From NCBI GenBank assembly GCA_944354725.1, contig CALVQA010000039.1, positions 1 to 62,208 of the forward strand: a DNA stretch of 62,208 bases, given 5' to 3'. Of this stretch, positions 4,794-62,102 are shown piece after piece; position 1 is the stretch's first letter; every line of letters begins with the position of its first letter. The notes beneath the pieces are model-generated. The model ran no database searches. It worked only from the letters and a program-made list of their open reading frames with translations, and was not told where the DNA came from. The stretch is from an uncultured Clostridia bacterium (lineage in GTDB: Bacteria; Bacillota; Clostridia; Christensenellales; Borkfalkiaceae). Position numbers and translations under genes: made by a program.

Positions 4794-6014
4794 TTATTTG
4801 AGCTTTTTTTCGTCGAGGAGAGCCTTTATTTTTATAGGCAATCCGAAGAGATTTATAAACCCTGCCGAATCGGTCTGGTCATAGCAGTCGTCGGCACCGA
4901 ACGTCGCTATATCCTCGCTATAGAGCGAATGCGGCGATGTTATCCCGGCAGGGATGACGTTGCCCTTGTATATGCGCAGCTTCACGTCGCCGGTAACGTT
5001 CTCCTGCGTTTTTTCCACAAACGCATCGAGCGCCTCCCTCAAAGGCGTGAACCACTGGCCGTCATACACCATCTCGCCGTATTTCACGGCGATGAGCTGC
5101 TTATAGTGCGCGGTGGCCTTGTCGAGACAGATCGACTCCAACAACTCGTGCGCGGCATACAATATCGTGCCGCCGGGCGTCTCGTATACGCCGCGGCTCT
5201 TCATGCCCACAAGACGATTCTCGACCATGTCTATTATCCCGACGCCGTTCTCGCCGCCGATCTTGTTCAATTTTTCCACGAGCGAAACGCTGTCGAGCTC
5301 CTCCCCGTCGAGCGCGGTAGGAACGCCCTTCTCGAAATGTATGGTTATATAGGTGCTCTTGTCGGGCGCCATCCATGGAGACACGCCCAGCTCGAGTATT
5401 TTATCGTACTGCGGTTCGTTGGCAGGATCTTCGAGGTCGAGCCCCTCGTGAGAAAGATGCCACAGGTTTTTATCTTTGGAATAGTTGGTCTCCCTGCTGA
5501 TCTTTAGCGGAACGTTGTGCGCCTCGGCATAATCGATCTCTTCGTCGCGGCTCTTTATGTCCCATATGCGCCAGGGAGCGATTATCGGCATTTCGGGCGC
5601 GAATGCCTTTATCGAAAGTTCGAAACGCACCTGATCGTTGCCCTTGCCCGTGCACCCGTGGCAGATCGCGTCGGCCCCCTCTTTTTTGGCTATCTCGACT
5701 ATGCGCTTTGCGATGACGGGGCGGGCGAACGAAGTACCGAGAAGATACTTATTCTCGTAAACGGCCCCCGCCTTCATCGTCGGATAGATATAATCTTCTA
5801 TAAATTCCTTGCGGAGATCTTCTATATAGAGCTTAGACGCACCCGTTTTTAACGCCTTTTCTTCCAGGCCGTCGAGTTCCGACTGCTGTCCCACATCGGC
5901 AGAAACGGCAACAACTTCGCAGTTGTCGTAATTTTCTTTAAGCCAGGGAATGATTATTGAGGTGTCAAGCCCGCCGGAATAGGCAAGCACGACTTTTTTG
6001 ATTTTCTTTTCCAT
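4794..6014 (-). CDS. argG: Argininosuccinate synthase
   Basis: The N-terminus [14 protein letters not shown] forms the ATP PP-loop, and similarity to ArgG runs the full length. The ATG at 6014 is preferred. The longer ATG at 6056 would sit about at the predicted transcription start. Confidence 0.9.
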
Positions 6015-9685: not shown

Positions 9686-10159
9686 ATGAAGTTGCTTGCC
9701 ATAGTGCATTCGACCCATATGGGCAACACCATGCAGATAGCCGAAGCCATGGCCGAAGTTGCTCCCCTTACTATCGCGGAGCTCGGCGATGCAGGCAAAT
9801 ATGACCTTTCGCAGTTCGATGCCGTCGGCTTCGGCGGCGGAATAAACGCCGGCAGCCACGACAAAAAACTTATGCAATATGTGCAGAAGCTGAATGCGGC
9901 GCCCGCCCTCTCGTTTGTGTTTTCTACCAGCGCCTCAGGCAAAGGCAGAAAGCAGAACGCAAAGCTCATAAAACTGCTCGAAGAAAAAGGAAGCAAAGTT
10001 TTGGGTTCGTTCGGATGCAAAGGGCTGTGCAGATTCTTTGTTTTCGCCATAGGCGGCGGAATAAATAAGGGCAAGCCCGACATTGACGACTTCGATGCGG
10101 CGCAGAGCTTTATTGAGGACATGATGAAGAGCGTAGAACTTGAAAAAAAGGGCAAATAA
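9686..10159 (+). CDS. Flavodoxin-family protein
   Basis: The N-terminus MKLLAIVHSTHMGNT is a flavodoxin-like FMN phosphate loop, and the length is 157 aa. An RBS GAGGAAG is present. The gene starts 18 nt after the PadR-like gene, so the two are probably co-transcribed. Confidence 0.7.
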   Translation: MKLLAIVHSTHMGNTMQIAEAMAEVAPLTIAELGDAGKYDLSQFDAVGFGGGINAGSHDKKLMQYVQKLNAAPALSFVFSTSASGKGRKQNAKLIKLLEEKGSKVLGSFGCKGLCRFFVFAIGGGINKGKPDIDDFDAAQSFIEDMMKSVELEKKGK

Positions 10160-10172
10160 CAGAATATTAAAC

Positions 10173-10204
10173 AGCTACCCCCGTGCAGACGCACGGGGGT
10201 AGCT
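10173..10204 (+). terminator. Stem-loop terminator after the flavodoxin gene
   Basis: The stem agctacccccgtgc / gcacgggggtagct has a 4-nt loop and is followed by a weak T-rich tail (tagttta). Confidence 0.5.
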
Positions 10205-10249
10205 TAGTTTATGCCATTCCCCCCCGCCACGCGATCTTGCCAAAGCGCA

Positions 10250-10452
10250 TGCCTCCCGTTTTAGGGGAGGTGTTTCGCGTATGCGAGGCGAAGGGGTCAA
10301 CTTGAATAGGTGTTGAGCGGAGTTAACCCCTCAGTCACTGCGTGACAGCTCCCCTAAAGGGGAGCCAAGGAGTTCCGTCATATCTATCCCATTAAAGGGG
10401 AGCTAAGGTATTGCCGCCCCTTTTGAAGGAAGCTGAGAGATGGCCTCACCAC
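10250..10452. repeat. Copy A of a 203-nt direct repeat made of consecutive hairpins
   Basis: It aligns to 10595-10797 with about a dozen mismatches by manual alignment. It contains the hairpins cctccc-N6-ggggagg, gtcac-tgc-gtgac and gctcccc-taaa-ggggagc. Confidence 0.85.
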
Positions 10453-10594
10453 TTAAAGGGGAGCCGAGGGATACGCCACTTGCCCCCACCCACGCTTGAA
10501 TACATTACTACTATAAGAGAACCGAGGGATAGCCCACTACTTTAAGGAGCGAGTAAAGAGCGTGCCGAGGCCATCGGCTTCCGCAGAAAAACCT

Positions 10595-10797
10595 TGCCTC
10601 CCATTTTAGGGGAGGTGGCTCGCGCATGCGAGGCGAAGGGGTCAACTTGAATAGGTGTTGAGCGGAGTTAACCCCTCAGTCACTGCGTGACAGCTCCCCT
10701 AAAGGGGAGCCAAGGAATTCCGTCATATCAGTCCCCTTAAAGAGGAGCTAAGGTATTACCGCCCCTTTTGAAGGAAGCCGAGAGATGGCCTCACCAC
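10595..10797. repeat. Copy B of the 203-nt direct repeat
   Basis: Same as copy A, offset by 345 nt. No ORF of 60 aa or more appears in the supplied track between 10195 and 10891. Confidence 0.85.
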
Positions 10798-10821
10798 GAG
10801 GGATAGCCGACGACGCAATAT

Positions 10822-10857
10822 AAAAACGGAGCCGAAAATTTCAGCTCCGTTTTTTTG
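10822..10857. terminator. Bidirectional rho-independent terminator downstream of the 825-aa gene
   Basis: The sequence aaaaacggagc..gaaaattt..gctccgttttttt has an A-run on one side and a T-run on the other. It lies 35 nt after the TAA at 10892-10894. Confidence 0.7.
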
Positions 10858-10891
10858 CGAATTTATTTACTTTCGCATTCGGTCATTGAAT

Positions 10892-13369
10892 TTATGATAT
10901 GGAACTAAACGAAATATTGTAATTAACATCAAAATCATCCAATTGATAGTCATCTAACGACGGCTCGTCATGATATACAACTTTCCACTTCTGACCGTAT
11001 ATATCACTGTAATCATTTCTTTCGGCACGCTCTATATAGTCCTCATGAGTGGGAGAACCCGAAAGTTCGTCAATTCCGCCAATAATATTAGCCGTAAGAG
11101 TATTAGTAAAATAATATCTTCCATTGTCACTCCTGACTTCAAAAACTTCGGGGTTCTTATCAAGAGATATATAAGAAGTATTAGTACTATAATCCCAATT
11201 TATATCAAATGCCCAGTTCCAACCGATCCTGAACTTAAAGTTTACCTTTTCGCCAGCTTTAAAAGTTTTATTTAACGGACTGTTTTCAGACTTCAATATC
11301 TCAACAAGTTCATCAATATTGCGCAGATAGCAATTCTCGCATGTGTTGCACTTAAAGTAGTAATCTACATAATTTGCGTTAGGATTATAAAGTGCCGTAG
11401 GATCACTGCTATGATCATGATCGTTGCACCTTTCGCATCCTTCACAAAATTTAACAAGCGAGCAAGTGCCGGCTTCATCGTCCCAGATTCCTATATAGAA
11501 CCGCATGGGATAAAATGTAATCGTATCATCATAATAGTCACTTGTAAATTTCATATAGTTAGCTACGGGGGCATTACCCTCAGAGTCGGTGACGATAAAA
11601 TCTAACCTGACATCATCTACAAGCGCCGTTTGAGATGTTAACGTTACATCAACACTCTGGAAACCACCTGCCGCAATTAAATCCAAATCAACTGTAGCGG
11701 CAGCACTAACAAAGAGGTCACTTGAATTACCGCTCTCAGAAGTTGTTTGGGTAGAAAAACTGCTTTGATAACCATATGTATAATCGAGCTGAACATCGAT
11801 CTGCGTTCCGTTTGTTTTGCCGCACACACACTCGTTATTTTCACCATACGAATGCTCGGCATATTCAATGCCGCCACAGCCTTCCCTGTTGCATTCGCGC
11901 AGATGGATATCATCATATATCACATATGCGCTCCAGTCGTGGCTGAGCGCATCTCCCTCGATCGCGCCGCACACGGCGCAGGTTTTGGGAGCGGTGCAGG
12001 TGGCCTCTATCCATACATGTTCGGCTATGGGCAGATCCTGGGTTTTTTGCGCGCCGCAAGCGGTGCAGGTATAAACTATTTTCCCTTCGCTCTCGCAAGT
12101 AGGAAGGGTAACGACGCCGTTGCCCCAATCGTGCGCGCCTGTTGCAGGAATGGCGGCGGAAATCGTATCGCCGCAGCCCGTGCAGGTAAACACGACACTG
12201 CCTGCCGTCGTGCAGCCGGGCGCCGTTATTACAGGCTTTCCGTAGTCGTGCCCTTCAGAAGCGGGGAAAGTTATTTCCAAAGTCTCTTCGCAATCTTTGC
12301 ACGAGTAAACTATCTTGCCTTCGCTCGTCTCGGTGGCAGGCGTTACCTCCCCGTTTTCAAAATCCCAGTCATGCACGCCCGTCGCGGCGACAGCCTTCGT
12401 TTTTACGGTACCGCAATCGAGGCAGGTAAACAACATTTCGCCTTCACCCTCGCAGTCGGCAGGGACGCTCAAAACGCCGTCGTCCCATCTGTGCACACCT
12501 GAAGCGGGAGTGAGCACCTCCACCGTCATGCCGCAGTCAAGGCAGGCATATTCTATGATCCCGCCCTTATTGCAGACAGCGGCAACCTTTACCTTACCGT
12601 TTTCGAAATCGTACCTGTGCTCGCCGTTGAGCGATATCGTAACGTCGAACGACTTGCCGCAGTCGGCACAAACATATTCGAGTTCGACTATCTCCTTGCA
12701 GTTTTCGGGAACAGTAATGTTTATCACATCCCAGTCATGCACGCCCGTTGCGGGGATAACGGCCGTTTCGGTGTGGCCGCAGTCGGCGCAGACATACTCA
12801 AGCTCGCCGTCATGCGTGCAGGTGGGCGCCTTTACCTCTTTGCTCTGAACAAGGTCGTGCCCTAAAGCGCTGCCCTTTATTATGCGTGTATCGGTCGCGT
12901 CGCAGCGGGAGCATACCGCCGTTTCGGTGCCGTCGGAAGCACACGAAGCATCGCCGTTGGATATGTAGGTCTTGAATTCATGCCCGAGCGCCTCGCCGTC
13001 GGAATACCCGCACACGCTGCACTGCCTGGGAGCTTCGCATGAAGCCGCCACCCAAACGTGGCCCGCGGCGGCAATGAGCGCATCCTCTTCTTTTATCTCG
13101 TGTTTGCCGTCTTTATCTTCAAAATATTTACCACAACCGGCACAATACCAATATTCCGAGTTGCCGCCGACGGTACAGGTCGCCTCCGCGGAGGAAAAGT
13201 GCGTGAGCTCGTGCCGGTGAACAAACAGAAAAACAAGGCTGAGAATAAGCGCAACGATAAGAACTGCTATTATAGCGAACGATGCGGCTTTAAAGGCTTT
13301 AGAACTGCCCGAAGGGCCTTTACCTGCAGCCCCGCCGCCCGCTTCGCTAAGTTTTTCTCTGTCATCCAT
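10892..13369 (-). CDS. Membrane-anchored Cys-rich repeat protein of unknown function (N-terminal TM helix, ~10 C-x2-C repeat modules, unrelated AT-rich-encoded C-terminal ~300 aa)
   Basis: A strong RBS AAAGGAGA precedes the ATG at 13369. The TM segment is FKAASFAIIAVLIVALILSLVFLFV. Repeated modules have the form ...C....G...Y.C..CG.......A.G.H.W. About eleven C-x2-C motifs occur in the first ~520 aa. I recognise no enzymatic domain. Confidence 0.8.
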   Translation of the reverse strand: MDDREKLSEAGGGAAGKGPSGSSKAFKAASFAIIAVLIVALILSLVFLFVHRHELTHFSSAEATCTVGGNSEYWYCAGCGKYFEDKDGKHEIKEEDALIAAAGHVWVAASCEAPRQCSVCGYSDGEALGHEFKTYISNGDASCASDGTETAVCSRCDATDTRIIKGSALGHDLVQSKEVKAPTCTHDGELEYVCADCGHTETAVIPATGVHDWDVINITVPENCKEIVELEYVCADCGKSFDVTISLNGEHRYDFENGKVKVAAVCNKGGIIEYACLDCGMTVEVLTPASGVHRWDDGVLSVPADCEGEGEMLFTCLDCGTVKTKAVAATGVHDWDFENGEVTPATETSEGKIVYSCKDCEETLEITFPASEGHDYGKPVITAPGCTTAGSVVFTCTGCGDTISAAIPATGAHDWGNGVVTLPTCESEGKIVYTCTACGAQKTQDLPIAEHVWIEATCTAPKTCAVCGAIEGDALSHDWSAYVIYDDIHLRECNREGCGGIEYAEHSYGENNECVCGKTNGTQIDVQLDYTYGYQSSFSTQTTSESGNSSDLFVSAAATVDLDLIAAGGFQSVDVTLTSQTALVDDVRLDFIVTDSEGNAPVANYMKFTSDYYDDTITFYPMRFYIGIWDDEAGTCSLVKFCEGCERCNDHDHSSDPTALYNPNANYVDYYFKCNTCENCYLRNIDELVEILKSENSPLNKTFKAGEKVNFKFRIGWNWAFDINWDYSTNTSYISLDKNPEVFEVRSDNGRYYFTNTLTANIIGGIDELSGSPTHEDYIERAERNDYSDIYGQKWKVVYHDEPSLDDYQLDDFDVNYNISFSSIS

Positions 13370-13476
13370 AAAAATTCTCCTTTAACTGATCTACCGAATC
13401 AAATCGGCGAAAATATTGTTAAAGGCATGCCCTTTTAGAGGTTTTTGCCGAAAACGTATAAAAAAACCGATATCGC

Positions 13477-13519
13477 AAAAAACAAATAAAAAAGCGTGCC
13501 TCACATTGCGGAGACACGC
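13477..13519 (-). terminator. Leader (attenuator) terminator inside the 5' UTR of the Cys-rich protein gene
   Basis: The minus-strand RNA reads GCGUGUCUC-cgcaaugu-GAGGCACGC followed by UUUUUUAUUUGUUUUUU. It lies 108 nt upstream of the start codon. Confidence 0.55.
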
Positions 13520-13632
13520 CCTGCACCCGTATCTCCGAATGTTGGCACACAAATCTCCAGAGCATAGGAAAATAGAGAGATACAAAAATGCCCACTTGTA
13601 TCCCATGCTCTGTATTATTAAATTTGTGTGCC
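13509..13632 (-). promoter_or_regulatory. Structured leader: an 89-nt three-stem hairpin (13544-13632) plus an antiterminator hairpin (13509-13537) that overlaps the terminator 5' arm
   Basis: P1 is GGCACACAAAU/AUUUGUGUGCC, P2 is CAGAGCAU/AUGCUCUG and P3 is GGGAUACAA/UUGUAUCUC. The antiterminator CGGAGAUAC/GUGUCUCCG shares GUGUCUC with the terminator stem. Confidence 0.45.
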
Positions 13633-13638
13633 GAGGTA

Positions 13639-13667
13639 ATTATATCACGTACGGCACTAAAAATCAA
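13639..13667 (-). promoter_or_regulatory. Putative promoter of the Cys-rich protein gene (TTGATT-17 nt-TGaTATAAT)
   Basis: The minus strand reads TTGATTtttagtgccgtacgTGATATAAT. The predicted transcription start falls at the first G of the P1 stem (~13632). Confidence 0.6.
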
Positions 13668-13706
13668 CAAAAAGGACGGAGGAAAAGATTTCCTTCGTCC
13701 TTTTGC
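13668..13706 (-). terminator. rny terminator
   Basis: The minus-strand hairpin AAAGGACGAAGGAAA-ucuu-UUCCUCCGUCCUUU is followed by UUGUUGAUUUUU. It lies 20 nt after the rny stop. Confidence 0.65.
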
Positions 13707-13726: not shown

Positions 13727-15346
13727 TTATTTTGCGTATTCAACGCTTCTGAATTCCCTTATAACGTTGACTTTTATCTGCCCGGGATATTCAAGCTCCG
13801 ACTCTATCTTCTTTGCTATATCCTTGGCGAGGAACAACGCCTGCGCGTCGTCTATCTGTTCCGGTTTTACTATTACGCGCACTTCCCTGCCCGCCTGGAT
13901 GGCATAGCTCTTATCCACCCCGTTAAAGCCGGAAGCGATCTCCTCGAGTTTTTCGAGCCTCTTTACGTAGTTGGTGCCGGTCTCTCTCCTCGCGCCGGGG
14001 CGCGCGCCCGAGATCGCGTCGGCGGCGGCAACGAGAACGGCCTCCACCGTTTTGGGCTCAACGTCGCCGTGGTGCGCCTCTATTGCGTTTACGATATTGG
14101 CGTTTTCTTTATACTTCTTTGCAAGGTCGGCGCCCAGACGGATGTGAGTGCCCTCCTGCTCGTGGTCGACGGCTTTGCCTATATCGTGTAAAAGCCCCGC
14201 GCGTTTGGCAAAGTTCACGTCTAAGCCGAGCTCCTGAGCCATGAGTCCCGCAAGCAGCGAAACCTCTATGGAATGACGATATACGTTCTGCCCGTAGCTC
14301 GTCCTGTATTTGAGCCTGCCTATGAGTTTGATAAGTTCGGGATGAAGGCCGAAGATGCCCACTTCGAACATCGCGCTCTCGCCCGCCTGCTTTATCTCGG
14401 TATCGAGCTCCTTTCTTACCTTTTCAACCGTCTCCTCTATACGGGCGGGATGGATCCTGCCGTCGGCGATGAGTTTTTCGAGCGAGAGCCTCGCCACTTC
14501 GCGCCTGATGGGATCGAACCCTGAGAGGATGACCACTTCCGGCGTGTCGTCTATGATGAACTCTATGCCGGTAGCATTTTCGAGGGCGCGTATGTTGCGG
14601 CCCTCCCTGCCTATTATCCTCGCCTTCATGTCGTCGCTGGGGAGCGAAACGGTGGAAACCGTTGTCTCCGCGGTGTGATCGGCGGCGCAGCGCTGTATGG
14701 CAAGGGTGATTATCTTTTTCGCTTCGTTCGAAGCCTCTTCCTTTGCCGTCTGCTCGATGTTGCGGACCTGAAGCGCCACGTCGTGCCTGGTTTCGTCGAG
14801 TATCTCGTTGGCGAGCAACGTTTTTGCCTCGTCCTTGGTGAGCTGAGCGACCTTTTCAAGCTCCTGGATCATGAGCTCGTGCTGATGGTTGATCTTATCC
14901 TGTGTTTTTTTGATCTCTTGTTCGCGATTGGCAAGATCCTTCTTCTGCTGTTCGAGGGCGTCGCTCTTTTTGCCGAGGGAATCTTCCCTCTTATCGAGAT
15001 TGTCCTCTCTCTGCGTAAGGCGCTGCTCTTGCTTTGCAAGTTCCGCGCGCTTTTCTCTGCTTTCGCGTTCGAAATCGTTTCTGAGTTTAAGTTCCTGTTC
15101 CTTTGCCTCCAATATGGCTTCTTTTTTCAAAGCTTTGCTTGCCGCCTGAGCTTCGGCTATCATTTTCTGCGCCCTTTCCGACGCCTCGCCGAGTTCAAGC
15201 TCTGCCTTTTTAGTGTTGCGCTTATGCCTTACATACAGCACGGTCACTAAAGCTAAGGCAACCGATGCAACGGCGAACAATACGATAAACGTTATCGACA
15301 GTCCGTCTGCCGCGAGAAACAGGGAGCTTATGCCGAGTAAATTCAT
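13727..15346 (-). CDS. rny: Ribonuclease Y
   Basis: It has an N-terminal TM helix, a long coiled-coil, a KH domain ([12 protein letters not shown]) and an HD domain (LLHDIGKA). An AGGAGG RBS is present. Confidence 0.93.
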
Positions 15347-15606: not shown

Positions 15607-17529
15607 TCAGTCCTCTCCCTCTTCCAAACATTTAAGCCACAGCGCCACGGAGGCATCGGAAGGCATCCGCCAGTCGCCGCGGGGAGAGAGCGTTACCGTG
15701 CCGACTTTTACGCCGTCGGGGATACACGAACGCTTGAACTGCTGCGAGAAAAATCTTTTATAAAAATTTTTCAGCCATTTATCTATCTCACCCGAATCGA
15801 ACTCGTCGGCAAAAGTCGCACGCGCGATGTAGCGCACCTTTTCGGGCGAAAATCCCCAGCGCACGATATAATACAAGAAAAAGTCGTGCAACATATAGGG
15901 ACCGACTATATCCTCCGTCTTTTGGGCAATGTTGCCCGAAGGGTCGGGCGGAAGGAGTTCGGGGCTTATCTCCGTATCGAGGATGATACCGAGCGTCTTT
16001 TGCGCCTCCCCGCCAAGGCGTTCGGCTTCGAACGCGATCAGATGCTTTACAAGCGTTTTGGGCACGCCGGCATTCACGGCGTACATCGACATATGATCGC
16101 CGTTGTAAGTGGCCCAACCGAGCGCAAGTTCGCTCAAATCGCCCGTGCCTACCACAAGCCCGCCCGATTTGTTTGCCAGATCCATGAGGATCATCGTGCG
16201 CATGCGCGCCTGGGCGTTTTCGTAAGTAACGTCGCGCACGGCGGGATCGTGCCCGATATCTTCGAAATGCTTAAGCACAGAGGGGGCTATCTCCACCTTT
16301 TTGAAAGTTGCCCCGACCGCGCCGATGAGATTGGTAGAACTCTTCAACGTTTTGCCCGTCGTGCCGAAGCCGGGCATCGTGACCGCGATTATATCCCTCG
16401 CGTCCTTGCCGAGTTTTCGGAACGCACGGCAGGTCACAAGCAACGCAAGCGCCGAATCGAGCCCGCCGGAAATACCTATCACCACCGTCTTTGCGCCGGT
16501 ATGCCTGAGGCGCTTTACGAGCCCCATAGTTTGAAGATCGAGAATGAGCTCGGTACGCTCTTTCAGCTTTGACCCGCCATTGGGGACGAACGGGTACTTC
16601 GGAAATTTCCGTTCAAGTTTTCCGCCGCGCGGCGTCACGGCGAATCCGACCGCCAAATGCTCTTCGGGTTCGGCACAATAGTAGGCGCTCGCGCACCTAT
16701 TCCTCTCGCCGTCGAGCTTGTCGCAGTCGATATCGGCATAGACGGCGCCGTTTTCGAACAGCTTGCTCTCACCGAGCACGGTGCCGTTTTCGCAGATAAC
16801 GTCGTGCCCCGAAAATACCATGTCGGTAGTGCTCTCGCCGTTGCCCGAATCGCAATATATATACCCGCAGATGAGCTTTGACGACTGCATCTTCACAAGA
16901 TCCCTGCGATATTCGGGCTTGCCCGCCACTTCGTCGCTGCAGGAAAGGTTGACTATGATGTTCGCACCTGCGAGAGCGTGCCCCACCGAGGGCGGCGCGG
17001 GCACCCAAAGATCTTCGCATATCTCTGCCGACACCGTGAAATTCGGAATGCGCTCCGACTTAAACACGATATTCGTACCGAAAGGAACTTTAAAGCCGCA
17101 CAGCTCTATCTCGGAAACGCCCTTGCCCGCCGGGCAAAAATAGCGTCTCTCGTAAAATTCGCCGTAGTTCGGTATATTTTTTTTGGGGACGACGCCGAGC
17201 AGCCTGCCTCCGCAGACCGCGACGGCACAGTTGTAGAGCCTGCCGTCCCTCTCTATCGGCGCACCTATAAAAAGCAACGCATCCCACTCTTTGCTGCGCT
17301 CGACAAGCCGTCCGAGCGCGTCGAGCACCCCGTTCTGCAACGCGCGCTGGTTGAACAGATCGCCGCAAGTATATCCGCATAACGAAAGCTCGGGAAATAC
17401 AACGAGTGCGGCTCCCTTTTTTACCGCGTCGGCCGCCGCCGACGCCATGGAATTTTCGTTGAACGGTATGTCGGCCACCCTGATTTCCGGAGTGACGGCG
17501 CATACCCTTACAAAACCGTAGCGGTTCAC
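15607..17529 (-). CDS. nadE: Glutamine-dependent NAD+ synthetase (CN-hydrolase domain plus NAD synthase domain)
   Basis: At 640 aa it has an N-terminal nitrilase-like domain ([17 protein letters not shown]) and a C-terminal PP-loop GISGGLDSA. The GTG start has AGGAGA upstream and overlaps the recA stop (GTGA). Confidence 0.9.
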
Positions 17530-51295: not shown

Positions 51296-51370
51296 GCTTC
51301 CGTAGTTAAATGGATATAACAGCCCCCTCCTAAGGGGCCGTTGTGGGTTCGATTCCCGCCGGGAGTACCA
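51296..51370 (+). tRNA. tRNA-Arg (anticodon CCT)
   Basis: I folded the cloverleaf manually. The acceptor is GCTTCCG/CGGGAGT with two G-U pairs. The anticodon stem is GCCCC/GGGGC with loop CTCCTAA. The T-arm is GTGGG-TTCGATT-CCCGC. CCA is encoded. Confidence 0.85.
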
Positions 51371-62012: not shown

Positions 62013-62102
62013 GCAGAGATGGCGGAGTGGTCGAACGCGCACGACTCGAAATCGTGTTACGTGGGAACACGTACGGGGGTTCGAATCCCTCTCTCTGCGC
62101 CA
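62013..62102 (+). tRNA. tRNA-Ser (anticodon CGA), class II with a long variable arm
   Basis: The acceptor is GCAGAGA/TCTCTGC. The anticodon stem is CACGA/TCGTG with loop CTCGAAA. The variable arm is TTACGTGGGAACACGTAC. The T-arm is GGGGG-TTCGAAT-CCCTC. The discriminator is G and CCA is encoded. Confidence 0.85.

Follow-up and report, generated by a model that had tools for sequence, protein, structure and literature searches.

A probable transcription-attenuation leader of variable surface-protein genes in uncultured gut Clostridia

Transcriptional riboswitches such as ZTP/pfl, preQ1-II/III and cobalamin (with its kissing loop) couple a sensor to an expression platform by a pseudoknot or a loop-loop contact. 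Antitermination leaders that depend on proteins comprise RAT with LicT/SacY, ANTAR targets with EutV/AmiR, and the leaders of PyrR and TRAP; an ANTAR target consists of two adjacent small hairpins with hexanucleotide loops (A1, G4), the second of which overlaps the terminator. Stabilizing stem-loops are known at the 5' ends of the aprE, ermC and S-layer slpA leaders. In addition, the cyclic di-GMP (c-di-GMP) riboswitches of classes I and II (c-di-GMP-I/II) precede adhesin and surface-protein genes in Firmicutes, as at cbpA of B. thuringiensis (PMC7423583) and in C. difficile (PMC11477304). Here we analyse a leader located at positions 13370-13667, on the minus strand, of a 62,208-nt stretch of DNA (hereafter the window; contig CALVQA010000039.1 of assembly GCA_944354725.1) from an uncultured Clostridia bacterium of the Borkfalkiaceae. 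The leader lies 5' of a gene (10892-13369, minus strand) for a Cys-rich surface protein of 825 amino acids. We consider it probable that this region is a cis-acting conditional terminator/antiterminator (transcription-attenuation) leader, and that it belongs to an RNA family without a match in Rfam 15. The family travels as a cassette of about 200 bp that contains a promoter, a rod-like domain, a switch and a terminator.

All elements of the leader are encoded by the minus strand and are given here in the order of transcription. A sigma-A-type promoter occupies 13639-13667, where the earlier note on this DNA had placed it, with TTGATT (13667-13662), a 17-nt spacer and TG-n-TATAAT (13647-13639); it scores 10 out of 12 and is the only promoter-like site between 13000 and 14000. 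The transcript would probably start 0-2 nt upstream of the 5' strand of the first rod helix, P1. This helix (GGCACACAAAU/AUUUGUGUGCC, 100% complementary) is made of a 5' strand GGCACACAAAUUU (13620-13632) and a 3' strand AGAUUUGUGUGCC (13544-13556). It is followed by J1/2 (13613-13619), an A/U-rich asymmetric internal loop with AAUAAUA on its 5' side and one nucleotide opposite, and then by P2, whose 12-nt 5' strand CAGAGCAUGGGA (13601-13612) is 92% complementary to its 3' strand UCCUAUGCUCUG (13558-13569). The apex is the P3 hairpin (13581-13600), composed of UACAAG, the loop UGGGCAUU with its conserved GGCAU motif, and UUUGUA. The 3' half of P3 and the start of an 11-nt pyrimidine bulge form a segment that we call X (GUAUCUCU, 13583-13576); X together with the rest of the bulge spans 13570-13583.

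Downstream of the rod, a linker AACAUUC (13537-13543) separates P1 from X' (GGAGAUAC, 13536-13529), which lies inside the 5' arm of an antiterminator hairpin (13509-13537) with 5' arm CGGAGAUAC, loop GGGUGCAGG and 3' arm GUGUCUCCG. The intrinsic terminator (13477-13519) consists of GCGUGUCUC (13519-13511), a loop, GAGGCACGC (13502-13494) and the U tract UUUUUUAUUUGUUUUUU (13493-13477). Both of these 9-bp hairpins had been drawn in the earlier note, and both are present. The remaining 5' untranslated region (UTR; 13370-13476) carries a Shine-Dalgarno (SD) sequence GGAG at 13380-13377 and is unconserved beyond the species; no promoter-like site was found in it. The 266-nt leader folds at -96.5 kcal/mol, compared with -60.7 +/- 4.7 kcal/mol for shuffled sequences (z = -7.6), and none of 200 shuffles was as good. 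An upstream promoter, a terminator before the start codon, an antiterminator exclusive of that terminator and a covarying sensor domain, by which terminator/antiterminator leaders are recognized, are all found here. An additional inverted repeat (13423-13456/13468-13501; 34 nt, 71% complementary) is conserved within the species only and, in read-through transcripts, pairs the terminator 3' arm and U tract with the A-rich UTR downstream.

The leader did not match by blastn any of 80 GTDB loci of related species centred on rny, the RNase Y gene that lies upstream of it, and in the nearest GTDB species a convergent flavodoxin-like gene directly follows rny. The 825-residue gene and its leader therefore constitute a lineage-specific insertion in part of the genus. 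Homologues of the 825-residue protein led to syntenic loci in the order nadE, rny, leader and variable Cys-rich gene (L081, L082, L084/L085, L088, L089-L092 and L093). Two of these, L081 and L082, are from near-identical genomes with leaders 98-99% identical to that of the window, and are for this reason uninformative for covariation. The comparison with L084 is more instructive. Here the RNase Y proteins are 93% identical, the third codon positions of rny are saturated (50% identical), the regulated proteins are 32% identical, and the rny terminator, the spacer past the U tract and the unalignable flanks have all diverged. Identity nevertheless still amounts to about 88% between P1 and the U tract of the terminator, which indicates strong purifying selection on exactly the promoter-to-terminator unit. 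A 71-codon open reading frame (ORF; 13391-13606), which the earlier note had mentioned as possibly relevant, is not coding, since a 2-nt indel in L084 and indels in other orthologous leaders interrupt it.

A sequence pattern made from invariant blocks (TGTGCC N3-8 GGAGATAC N6-12 GCGTGTCT) was matched at 22 loci in metagenome contigs, 21 of them genuine; the remaining one, L114, is a false positive in GC-rich coding sequence. The same pattern gave no match in viral contigs. Searching with nhmmer and a profile of the family added a divergent member that lies outside the pattern, L061:7405-7263 (E = 1e-10), found among the 80 GTDB loci. A weak nhmmer match at 5366-5401 of the window, within an argininosuccinate-synthase-like ORF, was dismissed as chance. 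Our covariance model, R1, scored 33 loci at 56-117 bits on the sense strand, whereas their antisense strands reached only 15-28 bits. With the same model, loci that have homologous genes and lack the element gave no match, and the other 79 GTDB loci gave a single weak one at the level of chance (17 bits, E = 0.4). The 33 loci represent about 15 lineages and come from gut metagenomes and metagenome-assembled genomes. In all of the approximately 20 distinct members the promoter has the layout TTGnnT, 17 nt, TGnTAnAnT, and it ends 4-7 nt (by script) or about 6-9 nt (by eye) before P1; because this layout and spacing are shared throughout, the RNA is predicted to begin at the base of the rod.

Some members show individual peculiarities. 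In L110 (9780-9921, minus strand), a 5'-truncated leader carries an ORF of 29 codons with a lipoprotein signal peptide, fused at the P3 loop and followed by an intact switch and another lipoprotein gene; this arrangement suggests recombination between cassettes. A transposase-like ORF lies between the leader terminator and the next gene in L105 (1173-2120, plus strand), and this copy seems to have been interrupted by an insertion element. One family member is situated directly 3' of the end of a 23S-5S rRNA operon (L109:777-1326, minus strand; L106; L113).

Folded one at a time, the distinct rods adopt a common shape of P1, A/U-rich loop, P2 and P3. P1 has 8-13 bp, P2 8-14 bp and P3 about 6 bp with a GGCAU-containing loop, while J1/2 has 5-16 nt on its 5' side and 0-9 nt (20 in L061) on its 3' side. 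The 3' pyrimidine bulge reads UCUCU(N)UUU, the P3 loop measures 6-9 nt (4 in our parse of L093/L098), the antiterminator loop 9-13 nt, and P1 is joined to X' by a linker of constant length, 7 nt of sequence AAC(A)AUC (6 nt in one member). Within the rod, the 5' internal loop (13613-13619 and its equivalents) is often TATAAT-like, resembling a -10 element at about +15 to +21, and the bulge often contains TTNTTT; either might presumably be a pause signal, dependent on sigma or NusG, although this is speculation on our part.

Covariation was assessed on a structure-anchored, N-padded alignment (A5) of 23 sequences from about 15 lineages, which replaced a plain MAFFT alignment (A4) because the latter misaligned P2; RNAalifold on A4 gave X:X' and the terminator only. 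In the rod and terminator, 96.7% of the cells of A5 are paired, compared with 81.1% after column shuffling, with none of 500 shuffles as high, and pairing falls to 33-59% when the partner columns are slid against each other. By helix, 98.8% of the cells are paired in P1, 98.8% in P2 and 93.4% in P3. Changes on both sides were found for 24 of 43 pairs (7 of 13 in P1, 11 of 14 in P2, 2 of 6 in P3 and 4 of 10 in the terminator), so that 20 of the 33 pairs of the conserved sensor domain (P1, P2 and P3) have compensatory changes. About 14 unrelated P2 sequences occur across the family, and all of them are paired. Given A5, RNAalifold again predicts P2, P3 and the terminator, and the covariation term is -6.1. 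The strong conservation of orthologous and paralogous leaders and their many compensatory stem changes are what the earlier note had proposed to look for.

These data also revise the rod, which had been described as an 89-nt structure with a P3 of 9 bp. P1 and P2 are present and covary in the family, but the long P3 is not borne out: its GGGA:UCUC pairs are 84.8% paired, without covariation and no better than shuffles. The covariation instead fits a 12-bp P2, in which GGGA pairs with UCCU, and a P3 of 5-6 bp. Since the P2 extension GGGA:UCCN covaries and GGGA:UCUC does not, UCUCU is regarded as a single-stranded bulge. A further pairing, between GGCAU of the P3 loop and GUGCC at the 3' end of P1, was rejected, since in L061 the change is compensated by P1 itself, not by the loop.

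The stems contain 80 G·U cells and only 6 A·C cells, so that the constraint is on the sense-strand RNA and not on the DNA. This bears on the idea that the inverted repeats of P1 are an invertible phase-variation switch or belong to a miniature mobile element. Inverted repeats of 11-13 bp do flank a segment of about 67 bp between the promoter and genes for variable surface proteins, and recombinant or interrupted copies (L110, L105) do exist. However, the acceptance of G·U and not of A·C points to selection on RNA, P1 is imperfect as DNA in several lineages, the inner segment has one orientation in all 33 loci with antisense scores of only 15-28 bits, and the leader element is single-copy within the 62-kb window. 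We therefore regard a DNA element of this kind as extremely improbable.

The switch rests on a three-way complementarity. X' is complementary to b' (GUGUCUCC), with which it forms the antiterminator, and also to X, while b' doubles as the 5' strand of the terminator. Antiterminator and terminator accordingly share a strand and exclude each other, as proposed from the window sequence, and this overlap is kept in every member. Complementarity between the 3' strand of P3 and the 5' arm of the antiterminator, likewise noted before, is kept in every member as well, and was chosen independently by RNAalifold, which on the unbiased MAFFT alignment put into the consensus X:X' together with a contact between GCAU of the P3 loop and RUGC of the antiterminator loop. 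X is invariant in the 23 sequences, except in L100/L107 and L061, though it lies outside the search pattern, and X:X' is 99.5% paired. L061 has G for A at the third position of X', C for U at its partner, the sixth position of X (U:A to C:G), and C for U at its partner in b' (A:U to G:C), and the terminator 3' strand is changed to match. As this is one event, the coordinated change is suggestive and not decisive.

Predicted energies agree with a switch. The terminator hairpins have -15 to -21 kcal/mol in all members, and the antiterminators have -8 to -15 kcal/mol. In constrained folds of the whole leader, the antiterminator and terminator states are only about 1-5 kcal/mol apart, with a single exception among the members, and the minimum-free-energy fold may be the one or the other. 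Such near-equal calculated energies are those expected of a bistable switch.

The leader could also be constitutive, with the rod as a 5' stabilizer hairpin that protects the mRNA of an abundant surface protein against 5'-end-dependent decay and the terminator as a fixed, leaky attenuator. Stem-loops at the 5' end stabilize the aprE, ermC and S-layer mRNAs of Firmicutes. In all members the rod begins no more than a few nucleotides from the predicted +1; the helices P1 and P2 are long and nearly perfect, and the promoters are strong, with extended -10 elements. What this explanation leaves without a reason is the invariance of X, X' and the loop motifs GGCAU and RUGCAGG, the fixed 7-nt linker, the near-isoenergetic antiterminator and terminator (in all but one member) and the coordinated three-way change of L061. 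A purely stabilizing role is thus unlikely in our view.

Ribosome-mediated attenuation is another model that draws on the invariant nucleotides. In that model the GGAG of X' would be an SD sequence and the RUG of the antiterminator loop a start codon (13529-13536 and 13524-13526 in the window, minus strand, inside the antiterminator), and a ribosome covering the shared strand would block the terminator, so that the leader would sense translational capacity or stalling. GGAG (GGGG in L061) is indeed followed by AUG or GUG 5-8 nt further on in every member, with only A/G varying at the first position. Pairing with the U of GCAU in the P3 loop accounts for this variation just as well, however, and the ORFs that start at RUG have 6-97 codons, change frame relative to the conserved nucleotides, and are no longer than ORFs in control frames. 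The putative SD is moreover sequestered alike in the X:X' and antiterminator states. We regard this model as highly unlikely.

All 33 copies are located directly upstream of a co-oriented gene, and in most members an SD and start codon follow within a few dozen nucleotides of the terminator (42-59 nt past the matched b'). In these members there is no room for another promoter after the terminator, so that the leader promoter must drive the gene and its expression needs read-through. The products encoded downstream include BspA-type leucine-rich repeat (LRR_5) lipoproteins (E down to 0), Listeria-Bacteroides repeat proteins, Cys-rich repeat proteins like that of the window, a zinc-ribbon membrane protein and small lipoproteins without a family. 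Several different surface-protein genes carry the element, and more than one type of copy occurs in single metagenome samples. The product in the window has a short N-terminal tail, one membrane helix as an anchor, about 10 Cys-rich repeats and a variable C-terminal domain; a Pfam scan of this protein gave no match and an exact-sequence look-up no record.

The position of the copies matters for a further alternative, a trans-acting small RNA (sRNA) of about 155 nt whose pyrimidine bulge (UCUCU..., resembling an anti-SD) would pair with the SDs of mRNAs, the downstream gene being transcribed only by incidental read-through. Terminated riboswitch leaders do act in trans (Listeria SreA/B), the element has its own strong promoter and strong terminator, and its loop and bulge sequences are conserved beyond the needs of pairing. 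A pure sRNA gene would have no use for a conserved antiterminator, however, nor would it be expected in 33 of 33 copies just 5' of a co-oriented gene, most with an SD so close behind the terminator that no promoter fits between. We consider an sRNA very unlikely as the primary function.

A conditional attenuator, the reading that we prefer, would work as follows. Transcription would start at the base of the rod of about 90 nt, which would display its pyrimidine bulge as a single strand. In the OFF state, X' would pair with the bulge and the 3' strand of P3, that is with X, and leave GCGUGUCUCC free; this strand and GAGGCACGC would then form the intrinsic terminator, and transcription would stop at about 13477. 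In the ON state, X' would pair with b' to give the antiterminator, and RNA polymerase would read into the surface-protein gene. The choice of X' would be biased by an effector that recognizes the rod apex, likely contacts being GGCAU of the P3 loop, the bulge, the fixed 7-nt linker and RUGCAGG of the antiterminator loop. A small ligand and an RNA-binding protein appear roughly equally likely as this effector. More specifically, the leader may be a riboswitch of a new class, with the rod and switch as aptamer and expression platform. Its ligand would be a small signalling molecule or else a metabolite related to the envelope or the host, and in uncultured gut Clostridia such as Candidatus Coproplasma the riboswitch would co-ordinate the repertoire of adhesin-like surface proteins (BspA-type LRR lipoproteins and Cys-rich repeat proteins); we put this forward as a tentative and rather doubtful possibility. 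That the leader binds a second messenger is pure speculation. No conserved regulator gene was seen near ten members, where the ORFs were inspected by eye and not scanned with Pfam.

Several points weigh against a conditional attenuator. The transcription start site, the premature 3' ends and the conditional character of termination are predictions from sequence, and the same applies to the putative formation of X:X' in cis. X:X' and antiterminator helices are nearly invariant, in part through ascertainment, X' and b' having been fixed by the search pattern, and each of these two helices consequently depends on one compensatory event in a single sequence. Alignment A5 was aligned by hand to fit the rod, and several of its rows are close relatives. 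A coaxial stack of P1 on P2 would put the bulge beyond the reach of the linker: 7 nt cannot span a stack of about 25 bp, and for X:X' to form, the rod would have to bend sharply at its internal loop or P1 would have to fray. Long, perfect helices such as P1 and P2 are unusual for small-molecule aptamers. Finally, the approximately 15 lineages all fall within a narrow group of gut Clostridia, and homologous or orthologous genes in different contexts or in further species (L083/L087, L086 and L116-L118) do without the element.

The gene neighbourhood of the leader is as follows. On the minus strand, an NAD synthase gene (15607-17529) lies upstream of rny (13727-15346), which encodes Pfam RNase_Y_N, KH and HD domains and ends in an intrinsic terminator (13670-13704), in which a 16-nt inverted repeat with 94% complementarity precedes a run of T. 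This terminator is context only, in that it insulates the leader's own promoter, which begins directly behind it. The spacer from rny to the 825-residue gene is 357 nt long. The source of the window is a gut Clostridium similar to Candidatus Coproplasma: relatives of the RNase Y in GTDB genomes are 72-95% identical and belong to organisms with names such as Ca. Coproplasma, Borkfalkia and 'uncultured Christensenella'. About 730 nt without a long ORF (10160-10891) separate the end of the 825-residue gene from a convergent flavodoxin gene (9686-10159, plus strand); the corresponding part of L081 has two small called ORFs, of 63 and 49 amino acids. Compared with L082:6001-8307, the regulated protein of the window is about 98% identical over its first ~470 residues and unrelated over its C-terminal ~350 residues (4-32% identity per 50 amino acids), while rny has 98.5% nucleotide identity; the difference looks like a swap of a C-terminal domain cassette in a polymorphic surface protein. 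Orthologous or homologous Cys-rich genes that lack the element are preceded by structured leaders of other kinds: in L086 (3696-4000) by a GC-rich one (-127 kcal/mol, z = -6.3), and in L117/L118 (L117:480-800) by a promoter and then a terminator-like hairpin AAAAAAAGGGGGCCCCCTTTTTT.

To our knowledge, hardly anything has been described of how genes are regulated in uncultured Christensenellales-like gut Clostridia, whose large, hypervariable surface proteins are a likely interface with host and phage. A conserved leader before many surface genes points to co-ordinated, condition-dependent control and may serve as a marker of the regulon. The element has about 150 nt and explicit, mutually exclusive pairings, and is amenable to synthesis and probing in vitro without culture. 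A small-molecule effector would make the family a new class of riboswitch, unusual in its regulon, whereas a protein effector would define a new antitermination system. The covariance model also allows such leaders to be annotated in gut metagenomes.

With Rfam 15, the whole window gave at gathering thresholds two tRNA genes only (51296-51367 and 62013-62099, plus strand), the leader region at E <= 10 gave only chance microRNA and sRNA matches of <=25 bits, and six other members at E <= 1 gave nothing at the element. The suggestion that the upstream domain matches no named riboswitch class thus holds for Rfam 15, which assigns it to nothing. A known Rfam family, or orthologous leaders lacking conservation and compensatory changes, had been named beforehand as the computable signs that would speak against the proposal; neither was observed, and the proposal is supported to that extent. 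No matching motif was found in the published literature consulted, which for Fremin & Bhatt 2021 covered the first 200 of 408 supplement files. The attenuator or riboswitch-like leader is a familiar kind of element; the present family seems not to have been described before, and the same applies to its three-way pairing logic and to its surface-protein regulon.

Among the described systems, the ZTP/pfl, preQ1-II/III and cobalamin riboswitches share with the present leader a 5' domain with covarying helices, a terminator directly 5' of the regulated gene, a 3' segment that pairs either with the sensor or with the terminator 5' strand, and possibly a loop-loop contact, here GCAU:RUGC. In contrast to them, the leader has no Rfam 15 match, is a simple bent rod of two helices of about 12 bp without a multi-helix junction, and precedes surface-protein genes instead of metabolic or transport genes. 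The c-di-GMP-I/II riboswitches resemble it in combining a leader and terminator before diverse surface or adhesin genes and in recurring at several of these, but their architecture is different, and there was no covariance-model match to GEMM-I or GEMM-II. As in the RAT, ANTAR, PyrR and TRAP leaders, the antiterminator overlaps the terminator, and conserved loop nucleotides could be a protein site. Some members even resemble the RAT core locally (UACUGAUGCAGG); the CUG/CAG top stem of RAT, however, is unconserved in the family, the class of genes differs from that of all four systems, and no PRD or ANTAR regulator gene was noted among the neighbouring ORFs, which were inspected by eye and not by Pfam scan. 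Identity with the ANTAR target was rejected on loop lengths and hairpin spacing: the loops have 6-9 nt (4 in the L093/L098 parse) and 9-13 nt, and the hairpins are parted by P2, P1 and the linker. Finally, the aprE, ermC and slpA stabilizers likewise place a very stable hairpin within a few nucleotides of the mRNA 5' end, before a gene for an abundant surface protein, whereas the present family has in addition a conserved terminator/antiterminator module and a bulge complementary to it.

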